A stretch of DNA of 64,000 nt from Octopus vulgaris (Eukaryota), in assembly GCA_951406725.2 (NCBI GenBank), contig OX597828.1, positions 27,528,001 to 27,592,000 of the forward strand. Direction: 5' to 3'. Numbering within the stretch: the stretch's first letter is position 1; every line of letters starts with the position of its first letter. The position numbers were made by a program, and so were the translations under genes. The notes below the pieces were generated by a model. That model saw nothing but the letters and a program-made list of their open reading frames with translations, searched no databases and was not told where the DNA came from. Below are positions 41,285-62,002 of the stretch, piece by piece.

Positions 41285-41745
41285 GCTAGGTCTATCCACT
41301 CAGTTGAAGTCGACTCTCGGTTACTCGATGGATCAGTGTCCTCCAATCAGTTCTATCCTGGGCCGCTTCTTTCAGATTGGCTATGTCCATTCCGGTATCA
41401 CTCTTGATGGTGTCAAGCCAGTGGGTTCTTGGTCGGCCTCTTCCTCTCTTGCCACTGACCATTGCGAGCATGATGTCCTTCTCCAGGGATTTTCTCTGCA
41501 TAATATGACCAAAATATGCCAATCTATGCTTGGTGATCCTAGCTTCTAGCAACATTTTCGGTCTGATCTGCTTAAGAACTTCTCCATTGGTGAGCCTCGC
41601 TGTCCATGGAATCCGTAAAAGTCTTCTCCAACACCAAAGCTCGAATGCATTAATTCTCTTCTGGTCAGCTTTCTTTAGTGTCCAGGTCTCATATCCATAT
41701 GTTGCTATTGGGAAGACAATATGCACATTACACATAAAATCTGTA
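41285..41745 (-). mobile_element. RTE (BovB-like) LINE 3' fragment
   Basis: VFPIATYGYETWTLKKADQKRINAFELWCWRRLLRIPWT...YFGHIMQR..LEKDIM..GKRGRGRPR..W.D. Confidence 0.92.
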
Positions 41746-43658
41746 AGCAGAACAGTAAAAATAGGCAAAACTTTTCTCAAGTTCAAAATGTGAAATTTCT
41801 TTTTATCTACAGTTGAACAATAGAGCTTTATATATTTGATAGAAACCAGCATCTTCCATTCAAGAAGACATCAAATAATTAAAAATAGAAGTGAATATAT
41901 GTAATCTTTATTGAAATTATTTTTCATATATATTAAAAAAAAATTGCTTACATTGCGTAGACATAGTTACTAATATTAGAAGAGTAGCAAATATAAACTG
42001 GAGACTAAAAAAAAAAAGTATGATTGAAGAGAACACTTTTAAGAAATGTACTTTTAAGTATTTCAGTTTTGACAATTTGTATTTCTGCTTTTAACTGGTT
42101 CAAGCAATCTCCTTCAGAAATTAGAAATTGTTGCAAATTAGTTCTCTGGTCATAAATTTCTCATGAAATCACAATGAAAGCATTATGTTGTTCAATTAAT
42201 TACTTTACAATTATTTTTCTGTATATTAGATGTTTTAGGACTTATTTTTGTTTTTTGAAGATAAATAAGACTTTCTGTAATGATAAATCTGTGGTTAAGA
42301 AAGAAAGAAAATCAGTTCACAGTTTATTTTAAATGGGAAGTTATGAAAAATTACAGTAGTCTTTCAAGCATATATTTCTATTTCATTTTTAATCATATTA
42401 ATTTTTACTTATCTTTCACTTAACATATAAGAGAATAAGTTAAAAATTTAAATGGCACTTGGCCAAACTTCTGCGATGAAAGCATTGAACTGAGGAACAC
42501 AGGGCCTTGATTTAAATTCCAATAAAACTATCTTGTAGATTTAACAACCTATATCTGGTACCCACATAGCTAGTACATCAAAGTGGAAGTTAAATGGAAT
42601 GCATAAATGACAAGCCTTTTGCAGTAAGATTAGAATCTAACCCATTTTTTTTCTTTGTTTCTTTTTTTTTTTGGCTTCAACTTTGCTCTTTATCTGCAGA
42701 AGCATATGTTTAAATGTATATGGTGTATCAGAAAAACATGAATTGGACCATAAATTTTATTACGACTTGTCAGGGGAATATCAACTGTATTTAAAACAAT
42801 TGTTTTATATTAGTGAAGGGAATATTTTACTATTTAATATTATATTCACATCAGGTACAGGCATGGCTGCATGATTAAGAAGTCTGTTTCCAGACCACGT
42901 GATTTCAGGTTCAGTCCTACTACAAAGCACGTCGAGAAAGTGCCTTCTGCTGTAACCCTAAACTGACCAAAGCCTTGCAAGTTGATTTGGTAGATGCAAA
43001 CTGAAAGAAATCTGTTCGGTTTAGAGTGTTAAGCTTCTAACCATAAGGTCATGGTTGCTGTCCTTGGACTGGGCAGTGTGCTATGGCCTTGAGCCAAGCA
43101 CTTCATTTTACATTAAACTACTCAGCTGGAAACAAAAACAAAAACAAGTACCAGGTCAGTGATGGTACTGCCCCTCCTCTCTGTCTTTAATTGTCGTGTC
43201 TTTGATGACCTTTGGGATCAAGGGTGGGAGAGCTGAGAAGGTGTCAGTATCTGCCTTGCAAGTGATACTTACTGCCTTGTACATGTGTGCGTGTTTGTGT
43301 GTATACCACCTCTGTCTGAGAATGTGTTCATTTTAATTATGCATGTTGCATCAATAGATTGCATTTATAGTGTGACATAATTAATTAATTATTGAACACT
43401 GAGGCATATGTAACAGGTCATGGGTTTGATTCCCTGACTGGGCAACATGTTGTGTTCTTGAGCAAGACACTTCATTTCACATTGCTCCAAGTCCCCCTTT
43501 TGATCAGGAGGGAATGTTGGCCTGCTCTCCTACCCAGTGGAGTGGCATCGTGTGAAGGCTAAAATGATACAAAGCATGCATTGTGACCAGTGATGTGTAA
43601 CAACAGCTGATGACATGGTCAGTCACGTGATCACATGACATGCATGCATAATGAGAGG

Positions 43659-52837: not shown

Positions 52838-54470
52838 TCATCATCATCATCATCATCATCATCGTTTAACGTCCGTTTTCCATGCTAGCATGAGTTGGAT
52901 GGTTCAACAGGGGTCTGGGAAGTCAGGAGGCTGCACCAAGCTCCAGTCTGATCTGGCAGTATTTCTACAGCTGAATGCCCTTCCTAACACCAACCACTCC
53001 GTGAGTGTAGTGGCTGCTTTTTACATGCCACCTGCATAGGGACCAGAGGAGGTTGGCAATGGCCATGATTGGTTGGTGCTTTTTACATGCCGCCATCATG
53101 GAAGCCAGTCAAGGCAGTGCTAACATCGGCCATGTTCGCATGGTGCTTTTTACGTGCCACCAGCACAGGTATCACAACTACAATTTCCATTTGATCTTCG
53201 TTTTGATATTGATGTACTTAACTCAATAGGTCTCCTCAAGCACAGCAGGTTGCCCACGATCCAAGGTACTTTGAATGGGCTGGGGCTGGTTGTGTGAAAC
53301 TGGTGTAGGATACAGCCATGAACTCCCTTTATTTGCCAGGTCTTCGTAATCACAGCATATCTCCAGAGGTCTTGGTCTTTTGTCATTGCCTCTGTGAGGC
53401 CCAACGTTCGAAGGTCATGCTTCACCACCTCATCCCATGTCTTCCTGAGTCTACCTCTACCCCGGATTCCTTCAACTGTTTGGGAGTGGCATTTCTTCAC
53501 ACAACTCTCTTCATCCATCTGTAGTACATGACCATACCAGTGCAAACATCTCCTTTGCATGCCACATCCGATGCTTCTTATGTCCAACATTTCTCTCAGG
53601 GCCCTTACACTCTGTTGTGCGTGCACACTGACATTACACATCCAGCGGATCATGCTAGCTTCATTTCTTTCGAGCCTACGCATGTCCTCCGCAGTCATGG
53701 CCCATGTTTCACTGCTGTGAAGCATGGCAGTTTACACACATGAGTCATGCAATCTACCTTTCACTCTGAGTGAGAGACCCTTTGTCACCAGCAGGGGTAG
53801 AAGCTTTCTAAACTTTACCCAGGCTATTCTTATTCTAGTGGTAACACTCTCAAAGCATCCACCCCCACTACTAACTTGGTCACCTAGGTAGCAGAAGCTA
53901 TGAACTACTTCTAGTTTCTCCCCCTGGAATGTGATGGAATCTGTTTTCTGAGCATCTGTGGTGTTTATTGCCCCTATGCATCTGCCACACAAGAAAGCTA
54001 TCTTCTTGGTTAATCTTCCTTTGATATTGCTGCACCTCTTATGTGTCCATAGCTTACACTGGGTACATCTTATAGAGTTTCTACCTACACCATTTCTCCA
54101 GATCAAGCAGGGCTACTACCTTAAGGGGTGTGTGATGAGTTTGCCTTCCTAGTTTCTAGAACTTTGGTCTGTGCTACATTGACTCTAAGGCCCTTCGATT
54201 CTAAACCTTGCTTCCGTACTTGAAGTTTCTTCTCTAGTTCTGGTAGTGATTCTGCTATGAGGGCCAGATCATCAGCATAGAGGAATTCCCAGGGGCAACC
54301 TGTCTTGAATTCCTCTGTTATTGCCTGGAGGACTATTATGAATAAGAGGGGGCTGAGGGCTAATCCTTGGTGAACACCTACTTCTACCCAGAATTCTTCA
54401 CTATACTCATTGCTGATCCTAACCTTACTAAAAGCCTCTCTGTGAAGGGCCTGTACAGCCCACAATAGTT
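52838..54470 (-). mobile_element. 5'-truncated RTE LINE (RT pseudogene plus 3' UTR and (GAT)n tail)
   Basis: GVHQGLALSPLLF, PWEFLYADDLALIAES, FCYLGD, MLHSSETW..RRLERNE, WYGHV; broken into three ORFs by stops and frameshifts. Confidence 0.95.
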
Positions 54471-54564
54471 TGACCAAAAGAACCGGCTATTGCAAGCAAA
54501 AATAAATATTGAGAAAAAGCACATTTGGCCAAATTTGAACATACAACAGTTTAACAAAACAACA

Positions 54565-57719: not shown

Positions 57720-57887
57720 ACGTAAGGTGTACTAGCCATCTGAATGTGGCTAGCCACTAGGGGTGGGGTGTTACTGATGCTTTTAGCCCCAGGCGATCAA
57801 CGTCACCAGATGGACTTTAGACACTATCTCAGTGCCCTTGTGTTATTTGCAAAGGGAGGTCATCCTCCCTCGAAGACCTAAGTACTA

Positions 57888-57932
57888 CATACGGACTATA
57901 GTTTCAAGGTAATTGCCTCTCTTCAACACATG
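57888..57932 (-). ncRNA. Type-I hammerhead motif (U3.G8) in the loop of a short fold-back (element about 57719-57975)
   Basis: CATGTG-TTGAAGA-GAGG-caatta-CCTT-GAAA-CTATAG-TC-CGTATG; arms 57843-57878 / 57942-57973. Confidence 0.7.
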
Positions 57933-58155
57933 GTAAGCACCGGTCTTCGATGAAGGAGTCCCCTTGCAAATAATATTTAACGTTTTTCACAGCAACCACT
58001 GTCACTGATTTAGAAAAACTGTCTGAAAGCAATAATAAATCTCTGAGTAACATGAAATAAAGTTTCTTGCTCAAGAACACAACACACAGCCTAATCCAGG
58101 AATTGAACACACAACCTTGTGATTGTAAGCCTGACACTCTAACCACTGTGCCATG

Positions 58156-58202
<47 letters not shown>

Positions 58203-58357
58203 TGAGGGAATAAAATCATTTTGAATTGATAAAAGGTGTGTTTTTCTAATATTATATATATATATGTATGTGTGTGTGTGTGTGTGTGACTGCATGTGTA
58301 CCTTTGGTGATTTTATTTTTCTCCATCTTCCCTTCCTTGGATCTTTCCTTTTCCTAT

Positions 58358-58392
58358 GTTTCTGACGAAGAGCTCCGCTCGAAACATTAAAT
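58358..58392 (+). ncRNA. Minimal hammerhead motif in a family-H-related element (about 58300-58497)
   Basis: GTTT-CTGACGA-A-GAGC-tcc-GCTC-GAAA-CA-TT-AAAT. Confidence 0.65.
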
Positions 58393-58574
58393 CCTCTTTC
58401 TTTCTTTCCTTTCCTGAACGTCCAATAAAACTACACTTGTTCCACGTCTCCACGCTGTTGTGTTTTCTCTTTGTGTTTTCATGTTTGGATTTACTATATC
58501 TATATATATATTTATATGTGTGTGTCTGTGTGTGTGTATATGTGTGTGTGTGTATATATATGTGTATTTATATA

Positions 58575-59281: not shown

Positions 59282-59447
<166 letters not shown>

Positions 59448-59448
59448 C

Positions 59449-59532
<84 letters not shown>

Positions 59533-59534
<2 letters not shown>

Positions 59535-59935
59535 CGTGATGCATATATGCCATTTGAATATGGCTAACCCAAAGGGTGGATGCTACTGTAGTTTGTAGCC
59601 CCAGGAAGACACCTCCTCCTGCTGGCTATAGACACACTATCTGTGTCCTGTCAGTATTTGTGAAGGGGAGTCATCCTCCCCGTCTTCAACACATGATACA
59701 CACGTACCCGAGTTTCAAGGTGTTTACCTTTCATCAGCGTGTGGCAATCATGACTCCCCTTCACAAATACTGACAGGACACAGATAGTGTGTCTATAGCC
59801 AGCGGGATGAGGTGTCTTCCTGGGGCTACAAACTACAGTAGCATCCACCCTTTTGGGTTCGCCATATTCAAATGGCATATATGCATCACGTTGTGTTACC
59901 GCTACTGTTTATAACTCACTCTGATATTTATCATT
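59533..59935. mobile_element. Fold-back element (142-bp arms) between (TA)n tracts
   Basis: 59533-59674 is the near-perfect reverse complement of 59750-59892; related to the 57719-57975 element. Confidence 0.92.
59699..59743 (-). ncRNA. Complete minimal type-I hammerhead ribozyme in the fold-back loop
   Basis: CACACG-CTGATGA-AAGGT-aaac-ACCTT-GAAA-CTCGGG-TA-CGTGTG; GUA site, predicted cleavage between 59705 and 59704. Confidence 0.85.
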
Positions 59936-60630
59936 ATATATATATATATATATATCCATACATTTGTATGTGCAATTATACATACATGCATGCATGGAAA
60001 TTGCAATCCCTTACAGTTAAACCCCTAGTTTTGGTTAATCTGCATTGGTTTACATTAACTTGCGTATTCTTTCATTCTTCATGTGTTCACTTAACTCTGG
60101 ATGTGCCTATGTACTTTCACGTCTGTTTTCTTCTTCAGTGTTATCTGTTTCCATAGTAACCTTCACATCATTAGAACTTTCCAAAGAAGGCAAAGAATAG
60201 TTTTCTCAACAGAAAGTAATTGTAAAACAAAGCACATACCAAACAGCAATTATCATCCAATTGTTGACAAATTTATTGGAAGTTTTACTCTCCCACCTCT
60301 CTGTTTTTTTGTTTTTTTTCATATTCCTGAAAGCTCTTAATTTTGACCTGAAGTTATATGTAATGCTCAGACGTAATATATATTTGTATACATAAATGCA
60401 TACCATTATGCATACATGCATTGACAGTTTTTTTTTTTGCTGTTTAAATAATTTATTCATTTATTCTACCTTTTGGTGAAATAAATAGGTCTATTTGTTT
60501 AAAATAAAGGCCATGATAATATAACAATTATTTAGTTTCATATTTGTTCTTTTCAATATTCCAGTCAAATTTATTTATTGATGAATCTTTTTCATGTTTA
60601 ATACAGTTGATCTCATGTTTAATACAGTGA

Positions 60631-60968
60631 AGGCGCATGGCTCAGTGGTTAGAGTGTCGAGCTTACGATCGTGAGGTTGTGAGCTTGAATCCCGGACCGG
60701 GCTGCGTGTTGTGTTCTTGAGCAAGGCACTTTATTTCACGTTGCTCCAGTTCACTCAGCTGTAGAAATGAGTTGTGACGTCACTGGTGCCAAGCTGTATC
60801 GGCCCCTTTGCCTTTCCCTTGGATAACACTGGTGGCGTGGAGAGGGGAGGCCGGTATGCATGGGCGACTGCTGGTCTTCCATAAACAACCTTGCCCGGAC
60901 TTGTGTCTAGGAGGGTAACTTTCGAGGTGCAATCCCATGGTCATTCATGACCGAAGGGGGTCTTTACC
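60631..60968 (+). mobile_element. tRNA-derived CORE-like SINE (family E)
   Basis: GGCGCATGGCTCAGTGGTTAGAGTG...TTGAATCCC...TGTTCTTGAGCAAGGCACTT; 3' half repeated at 61785-61980; head at 58040-58155 (-). Confidence 0.9.
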
Positions 60969-62002
60969 CTTTACAGTTGATCTCAGGCAGAGCACTACTG
61001 TGAAGAAGCATCTAAACATGTCACACACCAGTCTTCACCATCTCATACACCACACACTATTTCATTTGGTAAAACTGCCAAAGAAAAGAAAACCCAGTAA
61101 TTCTCTGGCAGAGCATCACCATAAGGTGTATCTAAATGCCCTGTAATTTGTTTAAACATAAAATTGAAGTCTTACAAAAAATCCTTACTGATGCTTAAGT
61201 ACCTTAAAAAGTGTTTTGTTCATAATAATATTCTGTATATTTTACACAATGTGGGATAAACTGTGGGAAGCCGTAACACTGAGGTGTTCATGAGATGCTT
61301 TCTTGAGACAAGTCCTGCAGTATTGTGGCTTTTCTAAGTATATCCACATTCAGTAAGATATACAGAATGCTATTTTGAATTAATACTGCTTCTGTCACTA
61401 ATAACTAATTTGTGTTATCCATAATTTTGCTACACACAAATATTATTTATTGATAAAAGTAAGCTGTACTTTTCTGTAGTTTTTCTCCGTATTTTTATAC
61501 TGAAAAACATTTAAAAAAAGAAGTCCTGTGTGTTGTTGTTTGTTCCTTCTCGAGCCATGCCTGGCTCATAAGGGCCGGTTTCCCAGTTTCTTGGCGTATA
61601 GGTTCCCCACCTGGATGGGACGCCGGTCCGTTGCAGGTGAGCTGCAAGATGCAGGAGGAAAGAGTGAGAGAAAGTTGTGACTAAAGAGTCAGCAGAAGGT
61701 AATGGCCTTGTAGCCAACAAAACTGACCTTTTCCCAAGAAGTGGAAGAATATGCAGTCGAGTCCAGTCAGACATATTCTCACACAAGTTGTGATGTCACT
61801 GGTGCCAAGCTGTATCGGCCCCTTTGCCTTTCCCTTGGATAACATCGGTGGTGTGGAGAGGGGAGGCTGGTATGCATGATTGACTGCTAGTCTTGCATAA
61901 ACAACCTTGCCCGGACTTGTGCCTCGGAGGGTAACTTTCTAGGTGCAATCCCATGGTCATTCATGACCAAAAGGGGTCTCTGACTGCTACTACTAAGGAA
62001 GT

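Follow-up and report, generated by a model that had tools for sequence, protein, structure and literature searches.

Non-LTR retrozymes of animals are described as non-coding tandem units of 150 to 450 bp that carry one type I hammerhead each, lack LTRs, show larger target duplications, and co-occur with PLEs (PMC7229834; 10.64898/2026.07.22.740005). Their mobilization by PLEs has been argued in these reports from co-occurrence and pLTR similarity, and where PMC7229834 discusses the mover, PLEs are named only as a strong candidate. EN+ PLE insertions are reported to contain an inverted 5'-truncated copy, a tail at one end, and partial tandems, and to lie in microsatellite targets (PMC8557442; PMC3846280); the origin of their tail and inverted repeats is called undefined in PMC8557442. 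For the autonomous anole element Poseidon PAc, in vitro work describes cutting and extension of both strands of an AT-rich target, two internal reverse transcription starts that bracket the tail, uncut RNA as template, and a predicted dimer (PMC11167929), and that study is not known to present both sites in one insertion or an account of inverted arms. Retrozymes, inverted and tailed PLE insertions, and a proposed link between retrozymes and PLEs are already in print (PMC7229834; PMC8557442; PMC8969392; 10.64898/2026.07.22.740005).

The locus studied here lies at 59533-59935 of the window, a 64-kb stretch of Octopus vulgaris DNA, and forms a 403-nt hairpin. Its inverted arms, of 142 nt (59533-59674) and 143 nt (59750-59892), differ by 3 substitutions and 1 indel and enclose a spacer of 75 nt (59675-59749), within which a 45-nt type I hammerhead motif with a GUA site occupies 59699-59743 on the minus strand, with the predicted cut between 59705 and 59704. 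Both outer ends abut (TA)n, on the left a tract from 59371 to 59532 that follows (TG)n starting at about 59285, and on the right a tract from 59936 to 59955, with the target-site duplication unreadable within pure TA. The near-perfect arms, spacer, minus-strand hammerhead, and (TA)n ends are all present as the original prediction had them, and the extension of about 45 bp that it placed on the right side is there as well, measuring 43 nt (59893-59935).

Mapped on a retrozyme monomer, the hairpin resolves into two pieces that meet head to head. The S1 arm (59533-59752, minus strand sense) comprises 220 nt of monomer, extends from just upstream of the hammerhead to a fixed end, S1, at 59533, and is 96% identical to a natural monomer from locus L006. 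The S2 arm (59750-59935, plus strand sense) comprises 186 nt of monomer and ends at a second fixed site, S2. The arms overlap by 3 nt at their junction (59750-59752), which is unique in the genome. What appears as the left inverted repeat (59533-59674, minus strand) is the portion of the S1 arm that is common to both arms, the spacer (minus strand) is monomer sequence copied in the S1 arm only, and the 43-nt tail from S1 to S2 (plus strand) is found in the S2 arm only. The window copy is itself sub-monomeric. We consider it probable that the locus represents one head-to-head insertion of two truncated retrozyme pieces in (TA)n, likely made by a PLE enzyme that primed on both target strands. 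Within its class the insertion is ordinary, and it is the testable integration rule, not the hairpin, that gives it interest.

Searched with the element, the 2.8-Gb genome gave 117 matches among the 40 candidates scored out of 2184. The underlying unit of 353 nt contains tail, spacer, hammerhead, and arm and occurs in tandem arrays, which reach 5 units among those listed. With a degenerate 35-nt ribozyme pattern, exact matches in the genome number 834, compared to 0 for the reversed control. Judged by its sequence, the family is of the animal non-LTR retrozyme type, a short non-coding tandem unit with one conserved type I hammerhead; it lacks LTR structure, and its target duplications exceed 4 bp, with 12 to 14 bp at 6 loci with impure TA targets (L003, L016, L057, L070, L072, and L099) and 7 bp at one further locus. 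The unit size resembles that reported for the retrozymes of mussel (350-390) and axolotl (330/350). Compared to published retrozymes, a pLTR parent was not found, and cleavage of the octopus family is predicted from folding only. The window also holds an old related hammerhead retrozyme copy with 68% identity and an S1-like end in (TA)n at 57721-58047 (minus strand), and further hammerhead-like motifs at 58357-58400 (plus strand), 3910 (plus strand), and 38863 (plus strand) that are probably ends of other PLE-type elements.

We mapped 104 loci on the natural monomer, which correspond to 78 distinct places and, after one segmental duplicate was dropped, to 53 two-armed insertions; L023/L024 and L196/L197 have common flanks, and each pair was counted once as segmental duplicates. 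The outer ends of these insertions fall at the two fixed sites S1 and S2, 43 nt apart. Both ends lie at fixed sites in 44 of the 53 two-armed insertions of this similarity-search set, and all 44 combine S1 with S2; at the remaining 9 loci, one end lies away from either site. The same combination was seen in 17/17 insertions within the arm-only and spacer-only query sets. Since the first query itself carries S1 and S2, we tested the pairing again with patterns that match a single end, which gave 216 exact matches for S1 and 237 for S2, and took the first 30 loci of each. Two arms are present at 41/60 of these loci (19/30 in the S1-anchored and 22/30 in the S2-anchored set) and the inverted arm is absent at 19/60. 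The two-armed loci correspond to 31 distinct insertions, of which the similarity-search set already includes 3, and every one of the 31 pairs S1 with S2 (p about 1e-9 against 50:50). Among the listed coordinates, facing pairs (n = 20) comprise 19 of type S1/S2, 1 of type S2/S2, and 0 of type S1/S1. The lone S2/S2 exception (L256, 909-1364) is real, and its flanks carry a longer duplicated stretch than usual.

The pairing of S1 with S2 is near-strict, compared to a PLE tail that the literature treats as optional or often one-sided. In the main texts that we covered, a partial sample of the literature, we found no statement of such a pairing rule or of twin priming by PLEs. The family offers a countable record that bears both on the origin of the PLE tail and inverted repeats and on the mover of animal retrozymes. 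Combined with the non-nested arms described below, the rule also yields a prediction suited to the existing in vitro PLE assay.

Compared to the outer ends, the inner junctions vary, with 40 and 39 distinct positions among 44 insertions, and the junction of the window copy has a single genome match, itself. A whole ribozyme lies within the loop of just 5/31 end-anchored insertions. From the unique junction, the variability of the others, and this low count, we conclude that the hairpin is a by-product of integration; the fold-back unit was not copied as such, and the ribozyme sits in the loop by chance. The idea of a micro-element that displays a ribozyme in its loop is therefore not supported, and the suggested check of whether boundaries are fixed or differ per insertion came out for the latter. 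MITEs are small, non-coding elements with inverted arms in TA context, features that the hairpin shares. A mobile 403-nt fold-back that retains the ribozyme in its loop, whether as a MITE or as a hairpin retro-unit, would account for the long near-perfect arms and the TA flanks, and about 30 loci in the first search span nearly the whole element. These loci differ in their junctions, however, the S1 and S2 ends are asymmetric, the duplications of 12 to 14 bp are not a fixed TA, and the family occurs in tandem arrays, so that this reading is already largely refuted and we regard it as scarcely credible. Compared to MITEs, the retrozyme insertions lack a fixed internal structure and carry a ribozyme. 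Variable junctions, asymmetric ends, duplications, and tandem arrays thus bear out the original call of a retro-origin over a MITE, and the DNA-transposon target duplications named as its possible refutation were not what we found where duplications are readable. Copies of this kind would nonetheless be mis-annotated as MITEs.

Microhomology at the junctions is modest (at least 2 nt in 13/44, chance 0.17), and 20/44 junctions were scored as inserts, partly owing to private SNPs. An apparent common junction of L019 and L021 was rejected as an alignment over-run at the internal inverted repeat of the monomer. Separately, a breakpoint at monomer position 213, inside a small G/C-rich hairpin that is perhaps an RT pause site, recurs at window position 59750 and at L069, L070, L081, L099, and L255.

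The family favors TA/TAA repeats, which flank 29/44 insertions on both sides and 37/44 on at least one side, and adjacent insertions do occur (L209/L210; L185, L187). Two independent back-to-back insertions in one TA tract, or a later inversion, might from this alone be expected to create facing arms. Yet there is no TA between the arms, a single duplication encloses the entire two-armed unit, the arms come from the same subfamily, and the near-strict pairing of S1 with S2 speaks against chance neighbors, which together make this origin very unlikely. Over 40 insertions, the arms of one insertion differ by a median of 1.1%, compared to medians of 5-10% between loci. Discordant sites within an insertion average 0.61 versus 1.20 for arms permuted within the subfamily (0/2000 permutations; 59 insertions), with 25/59 arm pairs disagreeing at 1 or more shared polymorphic sites, a concordance to be expected alike from one RNA, from a single active source lineage, and from subsequent gene conversion.

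How the two arms arose is best seen from the sequence that each holds for itself. The S1 arm alone has the spacer and the S2 arm alone has the tail, so neither can have been copied from the other, and these non-nested arms exclude a simple fold-back for the window copy. Arms are likewise non-nested in 18/44 insertions of the similarity-search set and 15/31 of the end-anchored ones. The unpaired part belongs to the S1 arm in 18, to the S2 arm in 7, and about equally to both in 6 of the 31 end-anchored insertions; in the 44, a partly query-biased set, the S1 and S2 arms have it in 33 and 9 cases, respectively. The published favored explanation of head-to-head junctions in PLEs is self-priming (PMC3846280), in which an antisense RNA or cDNA folds back into a hairpin that, with resolution by an endonuclease as suggested in PMC8557442, would here be opened by the PLE endonuclease with a 43-nt staggered cut and then inserted. 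Such a process would give S1 with S2 automatically along with near-identical arms, and the excess of unpaired sequence on the S1 arm in both sets agrees with it. Pure copy-back nevertheless demands nested arms, contrary to the window copy and the 15/31, and a cut of fixed polarity predicts the loop on one arm type, contrary to the 7/31 with the loop on the S2 arm. In vitro, moreover, cut target DNA primes PLE reverse transcription at both boundaries of the tail. We therefore consider self-priming unlikely, and the non-nested retrozyme arms also speak against it as the reading of EN+ PLE repeats.

Priming on both target strands, at S1 and at S2, accounts for all classes of loop position. The original prediction had taken the arms for two 3' ends facing outward, which is supported, and had offered two routes to this arrangement: the twin-priming-like one into (TA)n fits best, and the fold-back of cDNA does not fit this copy, because each arm has private sequence. 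In L1 twin priming, both target strands prime and an inverted segment with short junction microhomology results, much as proposed here. In L1 the internal site of the second priming varies and most of the sequence covered differs between the two cDNAs, compared to two fixed starts and two cDNAs of one and the same region in the retrozyme.

In the pathway of two-strand priming that we propose, transcription of the monomer, probably driven by an upstream element of snRNA type, would yield uncut multimers or circles. A PLE RT/GIY-YIG dimer acting in trans would nick both target strands about 12 to 14 bp apart. The two target 3' ends would then prime reverse transcription at different sites, S1 for one and S2 for the other, probably with a single RNA as template, and the second RT would displace the first cDNA. 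Each cDNA would end at a variable point (220 and 186 nt in this copy), after which the two would be joined head to head with little or no microhomology. We infer the displacement of the first cDNA, the use of a single RNA, and the head-to-head joining as steps of this scheme. Hairpin and loop ribozyme would be by-products, and the window copy would probably be a dead end. Taken as a whole, the wider model of a symmetric double target-primed reverse transcription by PLEs, with a dimer on one uncut and possibly circular RNA, a 12 to 14 bp staggered cut, joined cDNAs, retrozymes moved by PLE machinery, and a Tx1-like, site-specific LINE that in turn parasitizes a unit whose promoter is of snRNA type, is one that we put forward tentatively. 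If true, it would explain tail and inverted repeats in one step and replace the self-priming model.

That the mover is a PLE is argued by the insertions themselves, since an inverted arm, a one-sided tail, and a microsatellite target are PLE hallmarks. The retrozyme insertions match the EN+ PLE type in their inverted, 5'-truncated head-to-head copy, one-end tail, and microsatellite target, and share its partial tandems. Compared to the tails of 30-40 bp and duplications of 8-10 bp reported for EN+ PLEs (PMC8557442; PMC3846280), the retrozyme has a tail of 43 nt, duplications of 12-14 bp, and no ORF. With the anole element, it would share the two internal starts around the tail, the cutting and extension of both strands, the AT-rich target, the uncut template, and the dimer (PMC11167929). 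The argument for PLE mobilization thereby moves from co-occurrence and pLTR similarity, as in published retrozymes, to a footprint on the retrozyme copies.

GIY-YIG PLE copies are plentiful in the genome (150 scored of 6136 candidates), and one family repeatedly shows intact-looking open frames of 781 aa with RT and GIY-YIG and a C-x4-CxxC linker, by which it appears to be of the Neptune/Nematis type as described in PMC8557442. Some genomic PLE copies have an inverted arm, a short tail, and a (TA)n target as the retrozyme insertions do. An autonomous PLE with the arm or tail sequence of the retrozyme was found at 0/58 PLE loci (30+8+20; 150 scored of 6136 candidates). The arms, taken in the original prediction for copies of a pLTR 3' tail, belong to a non-coding retrozyme monomer of 353 nt; the 64-kb window contains no PLE-like coding matches. 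Family pieces in L175, L185, and L187 were rejected as PLE parts, being mere neighbors in TA tracts, and a 5.5-kb body between family pieces was rejected as an autonomous PLE because it is an APE-RT LINE. As a separate observation, L168-L175 represent a young autonomous PLE family, a candidate source of PLE enzyme. Its copies have repeated 781-aa open frames, inverted arms, and a degenerate hammerhead, and their two termini lie about 33 nt from each other.

On the minus strand, the hammerhead of the window copy spans 59743-59699 and is made up of a stem I of 6 bp, CUGAUGA, a stem II of 5 bp, GAAA, and a stem III of 2 bp with a 4-nt loop, and the A of its GUA site lies at 59705. The opening pair of stem II is A-U instead of the usual G-C, a base pair that is A-U in one subfamily, G-C in another, and mismatched in others. 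An Rfam scan of the 64-kb window gave 0 matches at the gathering score, hammerhead included. Stem III carries an 8-mer that is self-complementary in 90/105 regex matches, a few of these spurious, and two copies of the motif are predicted to cofold as a double hammerhead at -29.5 kcal/mol compared to 2 x -13.0 kcal/mol for single ones. Hammerheads with a short helix III are reported to require a dimer (PMC4209133), and single motifs of such build to cleave poorly (PMC4209133; PMC7229834). With its 2-bp stem III and predicted dimer fold, self-cleavage of a single copy is doubtful, and so is the self-cleaving loop of the original prediction; folding models suggest that the ribozyme probably needs a dimer for cleavage.

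Breakpoints across the family, with 6 duplicate, LINE-interrupted, or multi-part loci left out, show no clustering at the ribozyme cut site (4/73, compared to an expected 2.7) and none close to the likely start site (5/73, compared to 5.6), so they hold no signal of in vivo cleavage. The S1 arm of the window copy crosses the predicted cut site, and the template RNA must accordingly have been uncut or re-ligated. In the natural monomer, an inverted repeat (positions about 97-113 and 217-234) is predicted to fold into a long rod that carries the ribozyme at its tip.

Folding of the 403-nt minus strand yields -293 kcal/mol (z = -30.6; 0/100 shuffles equally stable), and any read-through transcript of the locus, its core motif intact, would fold very stably. 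About two thirds of the insertions leave hairpins, which could yield dsRNA if read through. A function of the locus in making a long dsRNA rod capped by a self-cleaving loop, as a small-RNA source or a regulated transcript, nonetheless seems highly improbable. No selection is needed to account for its structure, neither the likely promoter element nor the likely start site is present in the copy, and stem III is barely populated in the single copy, with a probability of about 0.001 for its two pairs in the hairpin ensemble and a cost of about 7.4 kcal/mol for imposing the hammerhead fold, compared to the double hammerhead of two copies.

As to transcription, a 7-nt motif found 57-61 nt upstream of U2 genes in 11/12 loci (L257-L268) recurs at monomer position 67, 57 nt upstream of position 124, the target site of the LINE described below. 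This suggests a candidate snRNA-type promoter and start site in the monomer; a scan for such a promoter with a matrix derived from unaligned U2 flanks did not reach significance, as 25 and 67 of 300 shuffles scored equally well. Both the likely motif and the likely start site are absent from the window copy, which by this sequence criterion is probably a dead end. No listed public run is recorded as RNA. Contigs of four public runs, one of them presumed RNA, cover family sequence and are blind to circles and strand. No listed contig piece bridges the window junction and the presumed-RNA run has no cover on unique flank, which is uninformative either way.

Family copies also serve as targets themselves. 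A two-ORF LINE without poly(A) lies inside them, flanked by a 20-bp duplication (L105, L106, L107, and L108-L137), with ORFs that encode a zinc knuckle and an APE-RT-zf-RVT protein, the latter open over 1145 aa in L106. Its insertion site is 26 nt upstream of the ribozyme core. Among 30 LINE 3' ends, 20 exactly adjoin monomer position 124, 6 match the corresponding site of distant subfamilies, 1 adjoins another hammerhead-like element, and 3 do neither. The domain layout suggests a Tx1-like element, and other transposons as well as U2 genes are reported among the targets of Tx1-clade LINEs (PMC4494074). An 84%-identical relative in L262:1-1500 directly abuts the start of a U2 snRNA gene, at its first base. 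No LINE targeting a retrozyme was found in the partial set of main texts covered.

Elsewhere in the window, broken LINE-type reverse-transcriptase frames lie at 41292-41870 and 53150-54486 (minus strand). Close to the insertion, a short repeat with a tRNA-like head, which we take to resemble a SINE, occupies 60643-60972 between 14-nt direct repeats.
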